From NCBI GenBank assembly GCA_963808625.1, contig CAWEHK010000018.1, positions 140,640-204,639 on the forward strand: a DNA stretch of 64,000 nt, written 5' to 3'. A program made the position numbers and the translations under genes. Positions 1,707 through 22,807 of the stretch are shown in pieces. The stretch is from an uncultured delta proteobacterium. Lineage in GTDB: Bacteria; Desulfobacterota; Syntrophobacteria; Syntrophobacterales; Syntrophobacteraceae. The stretch's first letter is position 1; the number at the start of each line of letters is the position of its first letter. The notes under the pieces were generated by a model. It was not told the origin of the DNA and searched no databases. It was given only the letters and a program-made list of their open reading frames with translations.

Positions 1707-3132
1707 TTAATTTTTGAATTGCATTGACTTGATTTCGAGGAATTCCTCCAGGCCGAATTTACCCAGTTCCCGCCCGTTGCCGGATTGCTTGTATCCGCCG
1801 AAGGGGGCGTATAGGTTGAACGGGCCGCCGTTGATGTCGACCTGACCGGTGCGCAGGCGGCGGGCCACCCGCTCGGCCCTTGCGGTATCGCCCGACCATA
1901 CTCCTCCCGCCAAACCGTAAATGGTATCGTTGGCGATGCGCACGGCATCGTCTTCATCGCTGAAGGTGATTATGGCCAGCACCGGCCCGAAGATCTCTTC
2001 TCTCGCTATGGTCATCCCGGGGTCCACACGACCGAAAACGGTCGGCTTCACATAATACCCCTTGTGCAGCCCGTCCGGCGCTTCCGGGCCACCCAGTGAG
2101 CAGTTCCGCCCCTTCCTCGATTCCCTTGCGGATGTAGCTTCTTACGCGATCCCGCTGAGCCGCCGAAACGAGGGGGCCGATTCTCGTCTTGTCGTCAAGA
2201 GGATCGCCCGGGACGAAGGTCTTGCAGATTTCCAGCACCAGGCCTTTGATCTCTTCGTAGCGGTTCTCCGGCACCAGCATCCGGGTGTGGGCGGTGCAGG
2301 TCTGGCCCGAGTTAAGAAAACAGGCGGCCAGGGTGCTCCTGACGGCGGAGGGCAGATCCGCGTCATCCAGAATGATCGAGGCCGATTTGCCCCCCAGTTC
2401 CAAAGCGACGCGCTTGACGGTCTCCGCAGCCAGCACCGACAGGCGTCTTCCCGTAGCCGTGGAGCCGGTGAAGGAGATCATGTCCACCTCCGGGTGGAGG
2501 GCGAGGGCTTCTCCCACAACCCCGCCGGGACCGCTGACGAGGTTGAAGACACCGTGCGGAAGGCCGGCTTCATCCGCTATTTCAGCCAGGATGAAGGCCG
2601 TAAGCGGCGCTTCCGAACTGGGCTTCAGGACCACGGTGCAGCCGGCGGCAAGGGCGGGCGCAACTTTCGCCACGGTCTGGTGAAGGGGGTAGTTCCAGGG
2701 AGTGATGCAGGCCGCCACGCCGATCGGTTCCCGAACGATCAGCGAGTTCCCGATCCGTTCCTCGAATTGGTAAGCGGCGACCAGCTTCGCGTAGCTCTCC
2801 ATCACCGCCGCCGGAAGACCGGCCTGGATACGCTGCGAAAGCTTAAAAGGCATGCCGACTTCTCCGGCCACGGTGCGTGCGATCTCGTCAGTCCGCGCGG
2901 CAAGTCCCTGGTGAAGCTTGCGTAGATATTCCGAACGCGTTTCCACGGGTGTCGAACCCCATTCGGTAAAGGCAGCGCGAGCGGCGGCAACGGCCCTGTC
3001 AACGTCTTCCCGGGTTCCGGCGGGAACCCGCCCCATGATCCCTTCGGTTGAGGCGTTGATGACCTCGATAAAAGACGAACTGCCGGCCGGCGTCCATTGG
3101 CCCCCGATGTAAAGCTTGTCGTAGATTACCAT
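1707..3132 (-). CDS. NAD(P)-dependent aldehyde dehydrogenase; frameshift at ~2095
   Basis: ITPWNYP, FTGST, LELGGKS and NSGQTC in 1954..3132; EEIFGPV and [13 protein letters not shown] in 1707..2051. One extra G separates the frames. Confidence 0.9.
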
Positions 3133-12773: not shown

Positions 12774-13144
12774 GAATGGCACCTCATGAGGAACGATACT
12801 ATCAGAACTGCGGCAGCAGAGGTCGGAAATCCGAAATAACCGCTCCGACATGCGGAACCCCGAATCAGAGGAAAGTCCGGAGCAACCTCTGCTAGTCCTC
12901 GAATGCGGCTTCAATGCATATTCTCCCCGAATGAACAACGAATTATCACGCCTTTCCAGTCAAGATATCGACCAAAGACAAGAACCCGCCATGGCTTTGC
13001 GTCGGCCGGCCGTTCCCGTTAAAGGAACATGCTTAGAACCAACTCAACCCTATATATCTACCATATTCTATATTCGAGGAAAAGCACCTGAATCTAATGA
13101 AACCTCGAGTACTCAGTGAGGAAACAGAGGGCAACGCCATTTTC

Positions 13145-13173
13145 TTGACATTCGAGGACGCGGTCTCTAGCAT
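13145..13173 (+). promoter_or_regulatory. Putative sigma70 promoter of the sbtA-sbtM locus
   Basis: TTGACA (13145-13150), 17-nt spacer, TAGCAT (13168-13173). Confidence 0.55.
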
Positions 13174-13237
13174 GATTTGCAGGCGGGGAGGATAGAATAC
13201 GATTTGAGAAAAACCAGCTGACCGATGGAGCAAGAGC

Positions 13238-13552
13238 ATGGACACTAAGGAACTCAAGAAAGTTCTCGCCGGGTTGTGCTTTGCAACCCTGCTGTCCGGG
13301 GCCGGCCTTACCGCCGCAGGAGCAGCGAGCGGGTGAGGTGCAGGCCAGTCCGGCGCCGGCGGCGCCCAACCTCCCAAAAAAGAAGCTGGAAAAAGTGGGT
13401 GAGGAGGGACCCAACCCAGCGCAGTTAGCGTTGGAGAAAAAAGCAAAGAAGCGACTAAGGGTGACGGAAATGCCACCAGGTCCGGAACGGGTGGTGCAGA
13501 AGAGCAGAAGAAAGTCCCCGGCAAGAGCGGCTGAGGCGGGAGCAAGCAATAG
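13238..13552 (+). CDS. sbtA: SbtA-like thio(seleno)oxazole/selenobiotic RiPP precursor with three selenocysteines (104 aa)
   Basis: MDTKELKKVLAGLCFATLLSGAGLTAAGAASG-U-GAGQSGAGGAQPPKKEAGKSG-U-GGTQPSAVSVGEKSKEATKGDGNATRSGTGGAEEQKKVPGKSG-U-GGSKQ*. TGA at 13334, 13400 and 13532; TAG stop; GGAG RBS; adjacent to an SbtM-like radical SAM gene. Confidence 0.85.
13352..13366 (+). promoter_or_regulatory. SECIS-like hairpin 1
   Basis: GGCGCC-GGC-GGCGCC; loop G follows TGA-1 after 21 intervening nt; lower stem GAGGT/ACCTC. Confidence 0.65.
13416..13434 (+). promoter_or_regulatory. SECIS-like hairpin 2
   Basis: CCAGCGC-AGTTA-GCGTTGG; loop G follows TGA-2 after 21 intervening nt. Confidence 0.6.
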
Positions 13553-13573
13553 TGCAGGTTGCACTGGCCCCGC
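13536..13573 (+). promoter_or_regulatory. SECIS-like hairpin 3
   Basis: GCGGG...AGTGCA-GGT-TGCACT...CCCGC; loop G follows TGA-3 after 22 intervening nt; the apical part resembles the E. coli fdhF SECIS. Confidence 0.7.
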
Positions 13574-13702
13574 TTGTCAGGACATACCCTTCATTGCAGA
13601 AGAGAGCGAAGGTTACCGGTTTAACCGGGTGTTTCAGCACGATGTTTGTATTTTGGCCGTGTTCTATCCTCCCCCCGAATCAAACGACGAAAGCCTCGAC
13701 CC

Positions 13703-15303
13703 GTGTATCAAGAGACTACGGATAGGATTGAAGCGATATATCCCGGATGCCGGCAGATTATTCCATCCGACGCATGGGATCGTCTTGCAGGCGCCTGTGC
13801 CGCGGGCCGTGGACCGGAAGAACTGCCTCAGGTTTTGTCTCGGCAAGCGGATATGCTTTCCCTCCCCGGTTATTTGCCGGAGCTTGCGCTTCTGGAGTGG
13901 GCCCTCTTCCGAGTGAAAACCATTGAGCCCGATTACTCCCTGCCGGGCAATTCAATTGATATCAACCCTTCTCTCCAGTTGCTCCGCTTCTCCTGGAAAA
14001 ACCTGACGTTTCTGCTGACTGCCGCTGAGAATGACCCTTCTCCCCTCACGGAACCAGGTGAAGAATACGTGCTCGTCTGGCGGCATCCGAGAACCGTGAG
14101 GCCCTGGTCTGCCCTGCCACTCACGAAGATCTCCTGGTGCTCAAAATGGCGGCTGAGGAGATCGATCCCAAACAGGTGGCCGCTGCCGGCAGGGTTACCC
14201 TTCATCAACTCGATTCAGCCATCGATCGAGCAGTGGGGAAGGGGTTGTTGATTGCCCCACCTTCGGGCATTCGGCGTGATCCCTCTTGTTTCCTTATGGA
14301 TCATGAGATCGAGGAGGATTTCCTGTCGTCTCCCGTTTTCACCCTCCAATGGCATATCACCGGGGCTTGCGACCTTCACTGCAGGCACTGCTATGATCGG
14401 AGCGGCACGCATTCCCTCGAACCGGAACAAGCGCTGAAGGTCCTTGATGGACTCTCCGAATTCTGCCGGAGCCGAAAGGTCAAGGGGCAAGTCTCCTTCA
14501 CCGGCGGCAACCCCATGCTCTATCCCGCCTTCCTGGAGGTCTACCGGGCTGCCTCCGAGCGCGGCTTCGGCCTCGCCATCCTCGGCAATCCGGCGCCCCG
14601 GGAGCTGATCGAAGAACTGGTCGCCGTCGAGCCGCCCCTTTATTATCAGGTGAGCCTCGAAGGGCTGCGGGAACACAATGATTATATTCGCGGGCGCGGA
14701 CATTTCGATCGCGTGCTTGAATTTCTCGAGGTGTTGCGCCATCTCGATATTTACTCAATGGTTATGCTCACGCTTACCAGGGACAACCTCTCTCAAGTGC
14801 TGCCTCTCGCTGAAATGCTTCGCGGCCACACTGACTTATTCACTTTTAACCGCCTCTCCCTGGTGGGCCGGGGCGCCGCCCTCAAACTCCCCTCCAAGAA
14901 CGACTACAGGGTCTTTCTGGAGGCTTATTCGGAGGCTGCAGAGCGCAACTCCGTCTGCGCTTTGAAAGACAATCTGATCAACATTATCCATCACCAAAAG
15001 GGCTTGCCCGCCTTTGGCGGATGTACCGGCTATGGATGCGGAGCCGCCTTCAACTTCATTTCTCTTCTGGCGGATGGGAGCGTCCATGCCTGCCGCAAAT
15101 TTCCGTCACCCATCGGAAACATCCTTCACACCAGTCTCGGGGAACTCTACGACTCCGAACCCGCCCGGCGCTACCGTTCCGGCTCCCGTGCCTGCCGGTC
15201 CTGTGCCATAAAGCCCGTATGCGGGGGCTGCCTGGCGATCGCTCACAGCTTCGGACTTGACGTGTTTGAAGACCGCGACCCCTATTGCTTTATCGCGGAG
15301 TGA
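13703..15303 (+). CDS. sbtM: SbtM-like radical SAM/SPASM peptide maturase; frameshift at ~14096
   Basis: FTLQWHITGACDLHCRHCYDR (CxxxCxxC), SFTGGNP, GGCTGYGCGAAFNF and CRSCAIKPVCGGCLA. The N-terminal extension in 13646..14251 joins by one missing base. Start (GTG 13703 or TTG 13646) is uncertain. Confidence 0.85.
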
Positions 15304-15358
15304 TCGGACTATAGCCTCCTGCAACCGCTCGGGAGCAGCAAGCCTTCTCGATCCTCAC

Positions 15359-16516
15359 TCACGCAAAAAGGTCCTGTTTCTTCATGAGTTCTCGGAAGAT
15401 GATCAGTTTCTGCACGTCCTGGGTGCCCTCGCCCAGCGATGCTGCCCAGGCATCCATGGGGTACTTATGGATAGGATGTTCGAAGATGACCGAGGCAGCA
15501 CCAAAAAGGTCCGCAGCCCACACCCCGATCTCTCTTGCCGCCTCCACCGCAAGGTATTTCGCCACGGATGATTCCAGACGAAAGTCCAACCCCTGATCTT
15601 TAAGCCAGCAAGCCTTCCACAAGGTCAGCCCGGCGGCTTCGATCCTGCTGAAGAAGTGCGCAGCTTCGAACGATTTGGCCTGGAAATGGACTATGCTCTC
15701 ATCGAACACCTTCCGCTTTCGAGCGTGTTCAAGGCCTTGTTCAAAAGCCCCCCTGGCCGTCCCCAACGTCAGTGCACTGATCGCGATCCGGCTGTGCGTG
15801 AAAATGTTCAGGACCTGCTGCAAGCCTTTGCCCCGTTCACCAACCAGGTTCTCATCGGGAACATAGGCATCCTTGAAACGGAGCCGGGTAAGATCGGAAG
15901 GAATCCACACCCTTTTGTTAAGCTTCGTTCGGGAAATCCCCTGAGCCGACAGGTCCACCAGGAACATGGATAATCGCTGGTTTCTCGGGGCTTCCGGATC
16001 GGAAACGGCAGTAATGAGAGCCAAATCGCTGATGGTCCCATTAGTAACGTATGCTTTGGTTCCGTTCAGTAACCATCCGCCCTCAATGCGATCAGCCCTG
16101 GTCGCAATGCCGGCCACATCACTTCCGGCGGTGGGTTCCGTGTTGCCAAGGCACATCAGAGTTTCCCCGAGAATGGCCGCAGGCAGAATGCGGGCGGCTT
16201 GCTCGGCATTCCCGCACAGGTAAAGTCCTTTAACCCCGAGGGAGATCTGCACGGCAACGGCAACGGCAACCCCCGGCGACAGCCTTGCCAGACATTCCAT
16301 CAGGACGGCCTGTTTCAAGGCGGATTCCTCCTGTATGCCCTCATCGCCGGCAACGAAACCCAGCCAGCCAGTCCCTCCCAGTTCCTGGAAGAAATCACCC
16401 GGAATGACCCCGTCTTCATACCATTGCGATAGCCGCGGCCGAAGACGCTTATCGAGAAAGGCCTGAAAACGATTCAGCTCTTCACTTATCTCTTGCGGCA
16501 AGGAAAAGTTCATCAC
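15359..16516 (-). CDS. Acyl-CoA dehydrogenase
   Basis: NTEPTAGSD, LNGTKAYVTNG, R..F...I..FQ, GEGTQDVQK. Confidence 0.9.
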   Translation of the reverse strand: MMNFSLPQEISEELNRFQAFLDKRLRPRLSQWYEDGVIPGDFFQELGGTGWLGFVAGDEGIQEESALKQAVLMECLARLSPGVAVAVAVQISLGVKGLYLCGNAEQAARILPAAILGETLMCLGNTEPTAGSDVAGIATRADRIEGGWLLNGTKAYVTNGTISDLALITAVSDPEAPRNQRLSMFLVDLSAQGISRTKLNKRVWIPSDLTRLRFKDAYVPDENLVGERGKGLQQVLNIFTHSRIAISALTLGTARGAFEQGLEHARKRKVFDESIVHFQAKSFEAAHFFSRIEAAGLTLWKACWLKDQGLDFRLESSVAKYLAVEAAREIGVWAADLFGAASVIFEHPIHKYPMDAWAASLGEGTQDVQKLIIFRELMKKQDLFA

Positions 16517-16698: not shown

Positions 16699-17964
16699 TT
16701 ACTTCACCAGCAAGAGGCTCAGCGGAGGGAAGAAGGTGATGATCGCGAGAGCCACCAGGAGGATGGCAATGAAGGGAAGGGATGCGTAATAAAGATAGAT
16801 AACCGATTTTTCGAACCTCAGGCTCGCAATGAGAAGGTCCATGCCGATCGGAGGAAGCGAATAGCCGATTTGGAGGTTGGTGAGAAAGATGATCCCCAGG
16901 TGCAGCAGGTCCACTCCATAGCTCTTGGCAATGGGTACGATTAGAGGCACCACAATAACCAGGGCGGAGAAAATGTTGAGGACGCAGCCGACCCCGAGCA
17001 GGAACAGGTTCAAGATGAAGAGAAAAGCGACCTTGCTTTCGACGTGGGCGCGCATGAAGCTCAAAATCTTGTTCGGCACCTGCTGGTCGATCAGGAAGCT
17101 GTTGAAGGCAAGAGATGCGCCCAGAATCACCACAATGGCGCCCACCATCATTACCGTTTTCATGATGGTGGACGGCAAATCCTTTATCTTGATTTCCCGG
17201 TGGATGGCCATCTCCACAAAGAGCACATAAATGGCCGTAATCGCTGCGGCTTCACTCAGTGCCAGGTAACCGCTGAAGATCCCGCCCAGGACTACCACGG
17301 GAAGAAGGATTTCCCAGAGGGCTTCGCGGAGGGCCGCGAGGATTTCGCGGAAACTGAAATTGTCATGGGCGCCGGTGGTTCCGCACCGAATGCCCTGGAC
17401 CATGCCGTAGAGGGAAAGCAGAACCAGCATGAGCACACCGGGCAAAACCCCCGCCAGGAAAAGATCGGCGGTATTGATGTCGGCGACCATGGCATAGATG
17501 ATCAGAGGAAGGCTGGGAGGGAAGAGCAGTCCGAGGCTTCCGCAGGTGGTCAGCAGCCCGAGGGAGAACTTTTCCGGGTACTTGTCGGCGATCAGTGCAG
17601 GCAGCATCAACCCGCCGAGGGCGACAATGGTAATTCCGGAAGCGCCGGTAAGCGCCGTAAAAAAAGAACAGGTGATGAGCGAGACGATGGCCAATCCTCC
17701 GGGCGCCCGCCCCATGATCGCCGCCGATAGCCTGACCAGCCTCCTGCTGGCCTGGCTTTCCCCGAGCACGTATCCGGCGAAGGCAAAAAGCAGGAGGGCA
17801 ATCAGAATGGGACTGGCCGCCAGGCGGTACATTTCGATGATGACTGCGGAGAGGTCCACGCCCAGGGAATGCAGGCACAACAGGGCGCCGGCGGAGATCA
17901 CCAGGAACAGCGGGGCCCCGGAAAAAGCCACCAGGATCAGCAAGACAGTCAGCAGCAGCGTCAT
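16699..17964 (-). CDS. dctM: TRAP transporter large permease
   Basis: Multi-TM protein with GSLGLLFPPS, LFLAGVLPG and G...PPIG motifs. Confidence 0.92.
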   Translation of the reverse strand: MTLLLTVLLILVAFSGAPLFLVISAGALLCLHSLGVDLSAVIIEMYRLAASPILIALLLFAFAGYVLGESQASRRLVRLSAAIMGRAPGGLAIVSLITCSFFTALTGASGITIVALGGLMLPALIADKYPEKFSLGLLTTCGSLGLLFPPSLPLIIYAMVADINTADLFLAGVLPGVLMLVLLSLYGMVQGIRCGTTGAHDNFSFREILAALREALWEILLPVVVLGGIFSGYLALSEAAAITAIYVLFVEMAIHREIKIKDLPSTIMKTVMMVGAIVVILGASLAFNSFLIDQQVPNKILSFMRAHVESKVAFLFILNLFLLGVGCVLNIFSALVIVVPLIVPIAKSYGVDLLHLGIIFLTNLQIGYSLPPIGMDLLIASLRFEKSVIYLYYASLPFIAILLVALAIITFFPPLSLLLVK

Positions 17965-18470
17965 TCGCTCAGGTCACCATGGCCCATACTTAGCTTTCCA
18001 ATGAACTGATAACCAAACCGTAACGTCATGAGCGCGAAACTGAGCGGAAAAACCGTCTCCAGCCACCAGTTGGGAATGCCAACGAAGGCCATGGTGCCCG
18101 AGCTCATTTCCATTTGGACAAAGATGAAGGAGGCATAAAGGAGCGTGGCGGAAACCAGCGTTGCGAAAAGGTTGCTGATAATACCGAGGGCTCGGGCGCT
18201 TGCAGCGGGCAGCAACTTCGGGAGGAGATCAATTTGGATATGCTTATTTTCAGCAGTGGCTCGCGCCGCCCCGAGCAAACTGACCCAGAGTACGATTTGC
18301 CGCAGCAAGGTATCACCCCAGATGACGCCGGTTGAAAAGAAATTGCGGAGGATGATTTGGACCATCGAGAACAGGACTAGAAATATCACCAGCGAAGCGA
18401 TCAACCCGTTTTCGAGCAGTCCGAACCAGCGGCTCAACTGCAATATGCTGTTTCGCAGGGAAGACTTCAT
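17961..18470 (-). CDS. dctQ: TRAP transporter small permease
   Basis: Four TM segments; QIILRNFF, HIQIDL. Confidence 0.9.
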   Translation of the reverse strand: MKSSLRNSILQLSRWFGLLENGLIASLVIFLVLFSMVQIILRNFFSTGVIWGDTLLRQIVLWVSLLGAARATAENKHIQIDLLPKLLPAASARALGIISNLFATLVSATLLYASFIFVQMEMSSGTMAFVGIPNWWLETVFPLSFALMTLRFGYQFIGKLSMGHGDLSE

Positions 18471-19543
18471 TGTTTTTTGGGAGATCGCGCCCGGTATTCG
18501 GCAAGTTCGGCCTGGATCTTCTTATAGGTGGCCATAGGAAACTCCTTCGGGCCAATGTCAGCCATAGCCTTATCGGTGAGTTCCTTAAAATCCTTGATCT
18601 GGTTCGGGTCCGGAGTCACCTTCTTCACCCCCCGCTTAAAAATGATCTCGAGGGCATCGGTGTTATCTTTCCTGGTTTGCTCAACGACCCGCTGCAAATA
18701 TCTGGCAGAGACTTTTCTCAGGGTCTCCTGAAGAGGAGCCGGGATTTTGGCAAGAAATTTTTTGTCCATCACCAGGACCCCGCCGACATAGGAAACCGGA
18801 GCGTCGGTAAGGTACTTGATCTGGGTGTACCACTGGGTGATCAGCGCATAGTAGGGTGAATTGTACACCACTTCGAGGAGGTTGGTCTGGAGGGCCATGA
18901 GCACATCCGGAGCGTTAATGGCGACGGTGGAAACGCCGACCTTTTCCATGATCGCCTGCAGCATGGGGGCGTTGGACTTGCCCCAGACTTTCTTGCCCTT
19001 GATGTCGTTCAGGCCGGCAATAGGAGTTGTCGACATAAAATAGAGAAAGCCAAGCTCCGGCCAGCCCAGGATTTCAAAACCCTTCTCGGCAAACCCGCGC
19101 TTCAAGTCGGGTTCGAGCTTAGCCATGACATAGTCGACTTCCTGGTAATTGTCGAAAAGGAAAGGAACAAGGAGCGCACGCAGATCATGATTGACATCGG
19201 TGAGTCCGGACGCGGTGAAGGCTGCGCCGTGCACCATGCCAATGCGAAGCTTCCTCAGCACATCCTCTTCATCGCCCAGGACAAAGCCGGCGAAGAGTTT
19301 GAAGCCCACTTTGCCTTCGGTTTCCTTGAGCAGTTCCGCATTCATCTCATTGAAAATCTGCATCATGGAGCTGTTTTCCGGCGCCATTGTAGCCAGTTTG
19401 ATCTCGTACTCGGGCACCCCCGCCGCAAACGCCGCAGAAGTCGAGAAGACGACAAAAAGAAACAACAGGCCAAAGGTGACGACACCGGACTTCCTGTGGA
19501 TTATCTCACGCGGGTTTGCAGCGCACTTAGGGCTAACCACCAA
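18467..19543 (-). CDS. dctP: TRAP solute-binding protein (TatP-type)
   Basis: IKLATMAPENS, LGDEEDVLRKLRIG, ALQTNLLE. TTG/GTG start after GGAGGT. Confidence 0.88.
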   Translation of the reverse strand: MVVSPKCAANPREIIHRKSGVVTFGLLFLFVVFSTSAAFAAGVPEYEIKLATMAPENSSMMQIFNEMNAELLKETEGKVGFKLFAGFVLGDEEDVLRKLRIGMVHGAAFTASGLTDVNHDLRALLVPFLFDNYQEVDYVMAKLEPDLKRGFAEKGFEILGWPELGFLYFMSTTPIAGLNDIKGKKVWGKSNAPMLQAIMEKVGVSTVAINAPDVLMALQTNLLEVVYNSPYYALITQWYTQIKYLTDAPVSYVGGVLVMDKKFLAKIPAPLQETLRKVSARYLQRVVEQTRKDNTDALEIIFKRGVKKVTPDPNQIKDFKELTDKAMADIGPKEFPMATYKKIQAELAEYRARSPKKQ

Positions 19544-20429
19544 AATATACCTCCGTTTCAGCAAGCAGTTTCTTTGCCTTTTCCTTGGCCAGCGTGTTGG
19601 AGAGGGTCAACTCCGGGACCTCATCCACAGGGGCCGCCAGGACCTCGCGCAAACTCCCTTCAAAAAGCTGACGGTCTTTTATTCCTGCGGCATAATACTG
19701 GGCAAAAAGAACCTTTGCCGCCAATACTTTGTTCCCGCTGATGGATAAAGCGCGATCGAATTGTTTTTTTGCTTCCGCCAGGCCGCCTCCGAGCACCGGG
19801 GCCCGGACCGCGAGGTAGACCCCCATGAGGAGGTGCGGACCGCCATAATCATAGGTATCATCCAGTTCGAGTATCCGGTCCAGGGTGGCACCGAAAACCG
19901 GCAAGTCCCCCACGGCTTCAACGTTGCCAAGGTTGCTGCCGATCCACCCCCCCCAAGCGCTGGCCGTCCAGAAGAGCGCCGGTACGTCCTCTTTCTTGTA
20001 TCCCTGCAGGAAAGACTTGAATTCATCAAGGTTTCCCGCGGCGGCTTTGCCAAAATCCCCCTTGTCCGAAAGGGCACGGAAACCATAGAGCTTGGCCTTC
20101 CGATAAAGAGCTTCGGCCTCTTTGGGCTGCTCATCGGCCACAAACATGGCGGCATAGGAAGTGTAGGCTCGGCACCCGGCGACGAGCAGTTCCCGGTTGC
20201 CGGGGTAAGCTTCGATCAAACCATCCACCAGCATCAGATAGGCAGGCGTGCCTTCCCTGACGATGGTCAGGTCCGTTTGCTTGGCGGCGGCCTGTGCCAC
20301 ATCCTGCAGGGTCAGGGCGACGCCGGCCACTCGAGCCGATTTGGCAGGGACACAAGCGGTCGAGGAGAGCAACAAACCTACAATGAGAGGAAAGAAGAAA
20401 CAGGGTGAAACCGGGTAAAAGCGAACCAT
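19533..20429 (-). CDS. TatT (TRAP-T, TPR-like) lipoprotein
   Basis: Lipobox-like STAC; helical protein with ALFWTA..W, ELDDTYDYGG and LSNTLAKEKA; first gene of the TRAP operon. Confidence 0.82.
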   Translation of the reverse strand: MVRFYPVSPCFFFPLIVGLLLSSTACVPAKSARVAGVALTLQDVAQAAAKQTDLTIVREGTPAYLMLVDGLIEAYPGNRELLVAGCRAYTSYAAMFVADEQPKEAEALYRKAKLYGFRALSDKGDFGKAAAGNLDEFKSFLQGYKKEDVPALFWTASAWGGWIGSNLGNVEAVGDLPVFGATLDRILELDDTYDYGGPHLLMGVYLAVRAPVLGGGLAEAKKQFDRALSISGNKVLAAKVLFAQYYAAGIKDRQLFEGSLREVLAAPVDEVPELTLSNTLAKEKAKKLLAETEVYFGG

Positions 20430-21465: not shown

Positions 21466-22738
21466 TCAGCTCATCCGGCCGATCTTAACCGCGCAGAGCT
21501 TACCGCACATGGAGCAGGCTTCCCGGTCCTGCGTCACCTGAAGACGCCGCTTGACCAACTCGGGATCAAGCGCCGAGGCAATCATGCCCTCCCAGTCGAG
21601 TTTCTGGCGGCATTCGGACATCCGGCGATCGGCATCCATGGCACCCGGGAGTCCCTTGGCAATGTCGGCCACGTGGCCGGCGATGCGCGCCGCCATGACC
21701 CCGGCGTAAACATCCTCGGCGTTGGGCAGGCCAAGGTGTTCGGCAGGCGTGACATAGCAGATATAGTCGGCACCGGCGGCCCCGGCGATGGCACCGCCGA
21801 TCGCGGCGACAATGTGATCGTAGCCGGCACCGATATCGGTGGGCAAAGGTCCCAGGATATAGAAGGGGGCCCCGTCACAAAGCTTCTTTTGCAGGAGGAT
21901 GTTGGATTGGATCTGAGGCAGCGGCACATGTCCGGGCCCTTCGATCATGACCTGAACGCCCCGACTGCGAGCTCGCCTGGCCAGCTCCCCCAAAATCATC
22001 AATTCCTGCAACTGCGCGCCATCGGTGGCATCACAGATGGTGCCGGGGCGGAAGCCATCGCCCAGGCTGAGCGTGACGTCGTATTTGTGGGCAATCTCGA
22101 GGAGGTCGTCAAAGTATTCGTAGAGGGGATTTTCTTTGCCATTCTTGCGCATCCAGTGCATGTGAATGGAGCCCCCCCGACTCACGCAAGGCATGATCCG
22201 TTCATAGGATTCGAGCCGCTTTACCGCCACCTGAGTGACCCCGCAGTGGACGGTAATATAATCGATCCCCTCGTTGCACTGTTTTTCGATACTCCTCAGG
22301 AGCCGGTCCCCGTCCATTTCGTCCAGACGACTGATGCCTGGCCATCATCTCGGTGGCCAGCGTGTAGATGGGAACTGCTCCCACCGTTACGGGGGAGTGT
22401 TCGAGGAAAAAGCGGCGGAATTCGGCCAGGTCTCCCCCGGTGGAAAGATCCATGATGGAGTCCGTCTTGGCATCCAGCGCCGCCTTGAGTTTCTCCGCCT
22501 CCATTTCCATGCTGCAGCATTCGCCACTCGTTCCCAGGTTGGCGTTCACCTTGGTTTTCAAACCCTGCCCGATGGCCCGGAGAATGGGAAAGGAATGGTT
22601 GCGATTCTTGGGAAGCACGGCCCACCCAGCCGCAATCAGGTCCCGCAGTTCTTCAGCGCTGACGGGCTCTCCCGCAACCGCCTGCCGCATCTCTTCGGTA
22701 ACAATGCCCGCTCGTGCAAAATCCAGTTGTGTATTCAT
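21466..22738 (-). CDS. thiC: Phosphomethylpyrimidine synthase; frameshift at ~22330
   Basis: [42 protein letters not shown] and CSMCGKLC. The upstream TPP riboswitch favours ThiC over BzaA/B/F. Confidence 0.9.
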
Positions 22739-22807
22739 GACATCCTCCAATTCAGCTCGCGCGGAGAGCTCCGGCAATGGCTGTGGTCAACGGCGTCCAA
22801 TTCCCTG

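Follow-up and report, generated by a model that had tools for sequence, protein, structure and literature searches.

An SbtA precursor with three probable selenocysteines and its SbtM maturase: a likely exported selenooxazole peptide with a possible role in soft-metal binding

The gene at 13238–13552 on the forward strand of the window (the whole 64,000-nucleotide stretch of DNA that was analysed) matches the SbtA precursor family (TIGR04081, 44.3 bits against a cut-off of 30.5), and the gene downstream of it matches the radical SAM enzyme SbtM (TIGR04082, 644.5 bits for its 3' part against a cut-off of 350), so the SbtA/SbtM assignment proposed in a sequence-only reading of this DNA stands. 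Our preferred reading, which we hold with rather better than even confidence, is that this SbtA carries three selenocysteines (Sec), that SbtM converts them to selenooxazoles, and that the product is likely to be exported and possibly acts as a chelator of soft metals of the copper type. The SbtA/SbtM thio(seleno)oxazole RiPP system was reportedly described by Haft and Basu in 2011 and by Lewis and co-workers in 2021.

Read with TGA as U, the translation of sbtA begins MDTKELKKVLAGL, continues for 104 residues and stops at a TAG. The three TGAs lie at codon 33 (13334–13336), codon 55 (13400–13402) and codon 99 (13532–13534), in the contexts ASG-U-GA, KSG-U-GG and KSG-U-GG, all as the sequence-only reading had given them. 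The [GS]G-U-G motif required of the SbtA family is present three times as S-G-U-G; the core appears as GGUG in PMC9204691 and as SGUG in PMC13188914. There is a Shine-Dalgarno-like GGAG (13227–13230, +) with the ATG 7 nt further on, and a sigma70-type promoter-like TTGACA-17-TAGCAT (13145–13173, +) with 10 of 12 matches and a putative function. The ribosome-binding site that had been proposed is therefore present; a promoter-like site is also there, and is weak when taken alone because three such sites occur in 12900–15450 against 1.0 ± 1.2 in shuffled sequence. There is a TTGACA at a comparable distance from sbtA in the same-genus genome G020 (locus L032).

Contigs from public runs X1 and X3, which belong to one study, extend across all three TGAs with identical codons, and a contig from run X10, from a different study, is identical to 13320–13569 with 0 differences. 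Because these contigs agree, the TGAs are not sequencing errors. The sbtA homolog of G020 has 77% identity, retains the same three TGAs and their hairpins and keeps the frame to the TAG, so conservation does not end at the first TGA, the outcome that the earlier reading had named as contrary to its proposal. It had also expected gene callers to cut the gene at 32 aa; NCBI and ENA indeed contain the exact 32-aa stub, with a cluster mate named 'radical SAM modification target selenobiotic family peptide'. A look-up of the readthrough translation, with U written as C, found nothing in the collection; it is blind to records bearing U. A phmmer search with the readthrough peptide gave nothing at E<=0.001 among 563 candidates, as expected because the peptide is of low complexity and the databases keep only stubs. 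RNA run X21 has no match on the sbtA locus and is evidence neither way.

SelB delivers Sec-tRNA at a SECIS element downstream of the UGA. On the forward strand, a SECIS hairpin is predicted by our hairpin rule after each TGA of sbtA: 13352–13366 (6 bp, loop G at +22), 13416–13434 (7 bp, loop G at +22) and 13550–13566 (7 bp, loop G at +23). The third starts at the TAG stop, which places most of it in 3' untranslated sequence, as in many homologs. All three agree with the bSECIS model of PMC13188914, for which the legend of Fig. 2 gives a G in the first two loop positions and a spacing of 16–37 nt. The hairpin rule is positive after 144 of 185 homologous UGA cores compared with 1 of 33 Cys cores, counts that are not independent because they come from related homologous loci. 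In the host genome, 1441 long open frames end in TGA and the rule is positive after 79 of them; it is also positive at the in-frame TGA of selD (G at +22) and at the in-frame TGAs of two FdhA-like genes. A genome-wide scan for UGA plus hairpin that made no use of homology was swamped by chance matches and was left unused, and Rfam over 12900–13750 returned nothing down to E 1.

After each Sec the peptide has the motif [GSD]A[GV][GS][AT] (GAG[GS][AT]-like), and this is the SECIS hairpin read as protein. The polar linkers that had been described between the Sec residues are therefore only partly such. When motif instances were counted with no selection for folding, the silent third position of motif codon 1 could pair with base 1 of codon 5 in 64 of 64 (T-A 45, C-G 13, T-G 6, C-A 0). 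A pairing count of 97.4%, with double changes in 5 of 6 pairs, is circular because 75 of the 147 segments had been picked for folding, and it was not taken as proof.

The host genome contains selA, selB and selD above cut-off, selD itself having one in-frame TGA, together with two or three other selenoproteins with in-frame TGAs. Among the sel genes that the sequence-only reading had listed for checking, selC was the one not found in this assembly (G000), which is 84.6% complete: ARAGORN reported 39 tRNAs, none for Sec at its default and only noise at a relaxed score; Rfam RF01852, scored on 150 of 734 candidates, had a tRNA-Trp as its best match; and blastn and nhmmer with the tRNA-Sec of five relatives as queries did not find it (best E 1.5). 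All 4 same-genus genomes tested have the tRNA-Sec, and so does G008. The same reading had suggested a search for Cys at the TGA positions, and homologs with Cys cores exist, either throughout (L081, L134) or mixed with Sec (L095, L098). Because of the three SECIS hairpins, selA, selB and selD, the other in-frame-TGA selenoproteins and the Cys cores of homologs, we are highly confident that all three sbtA TGAs are decoded as Sec.

Not every homologous UGA has its own hairpin. In the Nitrospirota sbtA genes of L107, L123, L130, L132, L139 and L153 the internal core UGAs have no hairpin at +18 to +23 and the last UGA has one; across the homologs a hairpin follows 76 of 110 internal cores, compared with 68 of 75 cores in the last position. 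UGAs in tandem, 3–6 codons apart, seem to use one hairpin jointly. For the internal UGAs that have no hairpin, the reason may be another SECIS class, sharing or graded readthrough.

The maturase gene is found in two frames. The 5' part (13646–14093, +) encodes an HvfC/BufC (PME1, DUF2063-related) domain and matches TIGR04082 positions 1–119; 13646 is the first possible codon and the true start is uncertain. The 3' part (14094–15303, +) is in another frame, encodes the radical SAM (CxxxCxxC) and SPASM domains and matches profile positions 133–516. The break near 14093 corresponds to a one-base deletion in the assembly. Runs X1, X2 and X3 (one study; close strains with contigs about 98–99% alike) have one extra base behind 14093, and so does G020 at the matching position. 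Additionally, thiC is split in a similar way (window 21466–22777, −; profile positions 1–131 and 137–417). This suggests that the sbtM break is probably an assembly error. An aldehyde dehydrogenase gene (window 1954–3132, −) matches just 339 of the 461 positions of its profile, and the assembly looks indel-prone. Runs X1 and X2 list no further indel inside sbtM, and the sbtM frame is unbroken, at >=480 aa, in 77 of 80 homolog loci. The sbtM of G020 (L169, G020:C32) is broken elsewhere, where two insertions of one base each are separated by about 35 nt. The sequence-only reading had mentioned neither this break nor the SECIS hairpins after the TGAs.

Among 569 SbtM loci from GTDB species genomes, the best 80 were taken for a census to place the gene within its family. 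These gave 82 precursors in 77 loci, of which two were dropped (a contig end and an N run) to leave 80. The number of core UGAs was zero in 5 precursors, one in 9, two in 28, three in 33, four in 4 and five in 1, by a rule based on motif context that is biased to close relatives and miscounts by one in two rows or more (L093 is over by one, its last UGA probably being the stop, and L083 is cut short); the leader HMM was built from 25 rows, of which one, L066, was mis-placed. Three or more Sec occur in 38 of the 80, and none of those 38 has a Cys core. One cultured carrier of sbtAM, Desulfosarcina alkanivorans PL12, has three Sec in its precursor (L144). The all-Sec triple form is the commonest state of the SbtA family in this census, and the gene at 13238–13552 is a typical SbtA in which the triple form is not special. 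The rarity implied by the sequence-only reading is thus not borne out, and a multi-Sec precursor is already in print (PMC9204691), in a review that mentions an SbtA precursor with 'at least two SeCys'. Compared with the 'at least two' or '2' Sec in print, three is a difference of degree. We met no statement of a three-Sec SbtA in the literature searched; one could stand in Lewis 2021, Haft 2011 or supplements. The family is unnamed in the text and supplement of BSepDB. Because databases keep these genes as 32–35-aa stubs, bacterial peptides with three to five Sec are undercounted. TIGR04081 has matches in 17 of 81 genomes of the taxonomic family and in 30 of 401 sampled genomes of the phylum.

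The homologs vary in other ways. Seven loci (L123, L130, L139, L153, L056, L065 and L145) have two differing sbtA genes per sbtM, often one lipoprotein and one non-lipoprotein. In L067, L076, L077/L158, L134 and L087 SbtA is Cys-rich, with 5–9 repeats (xxSCGG/SCSG) and at most one terminal Sec, and these repeats resemble the EGKCG repeats of oxazolin precursors.

What is known of the enzyme comes from other members of the family, for which the older names 'selenobiotic' and 'selenobacteriocin' are given in a table of PMC13188914. As described in PMC9204691 and PMC11002830, SbtM takes 4 Da off Gly-Cys or Gly-Sec to give a thio(seleno)oxazole with the free thiol kept. The reaction was seen in vitro for another member with minimal peptides, and the ring reacts with iodoacetamide, indicating a free thiol or selenol (PMC9204691). 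The system in the window resembles the family in its leader, two genes, G-U-G core, SECIS after the UGA, radical SAM/SPASM maturase and deltaproteobacterial-type host range. Each UGA has its own bacterial SECIS 21–22 nt downstream, at which SelB would deliver Sec-tRNA. By the family precedent, SbtM would abstract the Sec beta-hydrogen twice via 5'-deoxyadenosyl radicals, the ring closing onto the carbonyl of the preceding Gly with a loss of 4 Da per site, presumably at all three sites.

The N-terminal leader of SbtA (13238–13324, +, end approximate) has a KK n-region and a hydrophobic stretch with a maximum 13-residue Kyte-Doolittle mean of 2.0, and is likely to be a type I signal peptide for general Sec-pathway export. 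A lipobox Cys matches by pattern at the leader end in 53 of 80 homologs and is absent from the sbtA of the window; about two thirds of SbtA homologs thus look like membrane-anchored lipoproteins. No transporter or peptidase recurs among the 141 nearest neighbours of homolog loci, as expected for general Sec export. The leader would accordingly be removed as a signal peptide and a flexible product of about 75 aa would leave the cell as one chain. Of the 'multi-core' description given earlier, the three Sec sites are retained; one exported chain with several sites fits better than several released peptides.

A hairpin whose apex is CC(A/T)GG(G/C) and whose arms are T-rich/A-rich recurs in the 5' leader before sbtA for about 18 of the 80 precursors in the homolog set (L083, L088, L089, L095, L100, L110, L113, L114, L120, L126, L133, L136, L137, L141, L143, L144, L148 and L155). 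It lies 28–41 nt upstream of the start (for example at about 6105–6130 in L155), is absent from the window and, in the one locus compared with Rfam, matched no family credibly. It may be a regulatory RNA or an operator that has been conserved.

The N-terminal domain of SbtM links the system to another group of RiPPs. A profile built on 42 of these domains retrieves four stand-alone DUF2063 proteins (E 1e-21 to 1e-28), all of which match both TIGR04082 and HvfC NF050145, and DUF2063 proteins used as query recover SbtM-sized frames adjoining sbtA. The window's own sbtM N-terminal fragment has 27% identity to one stand-alone DUF2063 protein. The top ESM Atlas matches are DUF2063/HvfC/BufC clusters (0.89–0.90). 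In a wide search with VIA-align, an AlphaFold model of the L079 domain (pLDDT 90) matched 3DEE with Z 12.4 and an rmsd of 2.7 over 141 residues, followed by 8HCI_C (TglHI entry, Z 9.7) and methanobactin MbnABC chains (Z 4.4–4.8). PMC12668002 identifies 3DEE as NgoC, a PME1 partner in a thiooxazole pathway. The profile had a best E of 0.6 against PDB sequences, and single domains gave weak Pfam matches (NGO1945_C in 5 of 42, DUF2063 in 4 of 42, best E 0.003). Judged by profiles and the predicted fold, the domain is homologous to the HvfC/BufC/NgoC (PME1) partner of MNIO enzymes. Because it is the same module, it likely binds the precursor in SbtM, as a fused version of what is a separate partner in MNIO systems. 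L165 (G163:C22), from the same phylum, has at a contig end a DUF2063-like ORF of the SbtM-related subtype that stands alone, unfused to any radical SAM domain.

Captophorins (bufferins, oxazolin HvfABC, fontiphorin/gonophorin) are made by MNIO plus PME1, according to PMC11626156, PMC12452194 and PMC12668002; bufferins and oxazolin are described in the first two as having a thiooxazole ring, Sec signal peptides, a DUF2063 partner and periplasmic copper binding. SbtA/SbtM is like them in the 5-thio-oxazole-type ring on Cys-Gly-rich repeats, the signal peptide (predicted for SbtA) and the DUF2063/RRE module. In contrast, SbtM is an O2-independent radical SAM enzyme whereas the captophorin maturase is an O2-using MNIO, the partner domain forms part of SbtM and has a shorter N-terminus, the SbtA residue is Sec, and sbtAM has no DoxX or ECF sigma factor cluster. 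PF05114 had no match, and so no MNIO gene was found, in any of the four sbtA carriers tested (G000, G020, G008 and G066). With a radical SAM maturase and no PF05114, SbtA/SbtM is outside the captophorin class, and a comparison of how the two work stands. The parts of the literature searched draw no link between SbtM and captophorins and cite SbtM only for spectra or chemistry.

Since it combines a signal-like leader, a PME1-type domain in SbtM and the ring of bufferins and oxazolin, SbtAM is likely, by analogy, to be an O2-independent, selenium counterpart of these exported metal-binding systems. Made without O2, the product might then bind soft metals, Cu(I) among them, once outside the cytoplasm. 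Taken as a separate claim, metal chelation falls a little short of an even chance in our estimate. We hold slightly more tentatively still that SbtA/SbtM is the anaerobic selenium branch of captophorins, in which a radical SAM enzyme took over the PME1 module and makes several selenooxazoles, and that its product is an exported or lipid-anchored poly-selenol metallophore for Cu(I), Hg and Ag. Against a metal role, copper ATPase, HMA, DoxX and Cus-type genes are absent from the 141 nearest neighbours of homolog loci and no copper genes flank the sbtAM locus of the window, the recurrent neighbours are redox genes, and no conserved operator-like dyad was seen upstream of sbtA, where the promoter spacer is 17 nt. 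A TRAP cluster with T-component (DctM, DctP, TatT by Pfam) at 16699–20429 (−) of the window, adjoining an acyl-CoA dehydrogenase, is ordinary and unrelated to sbtAM.

These redox neighbours suggest another function for the same gene and chemistry, with the exported selenooxazole peptide serving in the periplasm as a redox agent or a scavenger of oxidants. Of the 80 homolog loci, MsrA adjoins sbtA in 5, a MerA/lipoamide-dehydrogenase-like flavoprotein is present in 6, accompanied in 2 by VTT proteins beside sbtA or sbtM, and DUF547 adjoins in 4; the ring retains a free thiol or selenol (PMC9204691). However, such neighbours occur in a small share of loci, several of them from related genomes, and none is in the window, and we consider this function unlikely. 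It is much less probable that the peptide is cut into small cores acting as an antibacterial or signalling RiPP, the 'selenobacteriocin' among the older family names tabulated in PMC13188914. The repeated cores and Lys-rich spacers would suit such a product, but nothing that recurs among the 141 neighbours is a dedicated peptidase, an ABC exporter or an immunity gene, two thirds of the homologs are lipoprotein-like, and core number and spacers vary freely.

The remaining explanations question whether the locus works as proposed at all. If it were decaying and sbtM a true pseudogene, an unmodified Sec peptide or nothing useful would be made. The sbtM frame is broken both here and, elsewhere in the gene, in G020, and 6 of the 7 other same-genus genomes lack a TIGR04081 match. 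Yet the missing base is present in three runs of close strains with no other sbtM indel listed in X1/X2, the split thiC points to an indel-prone assembly, sbtM is whole in nearly all homolog loci, and sbtA, its hairpins and its promoter are intact; decay is therefore very improbable, marginally more so than the release of small cores. We give almost no credence to the first TGA being a true stop after a 32-aa peptide, or to TGA encoding another residue. The tRNA-Sec missing from the assembly and the 32-aa database form would favour a true stop, but this is difficult to reconcile with SECIS hairpins at all three TGAs, a frame kept to the TAG in the G020 homolog (77% identity), other homologs with Cys at these cores, and intact selA, selB and selD. 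Reassignment of TGA is opposed by the ordinary host genes that stop at TGA, including sbtM itself (15301–15303).

A three-Sec SbtA that is modified by SbtM and likely exported thus remains our preferred reading. With an in-frame SECIS for each UGA, such genes are a natural model of multi-Sec insertion in bacteria. Additionally, the leader and the PME1-type domain connect an orphan RiPP system with the copper-binding bufferin/oxazolin group, and the selenium-branch reading, if true, would give a function to the only characterised Sec-containing RiPP system.
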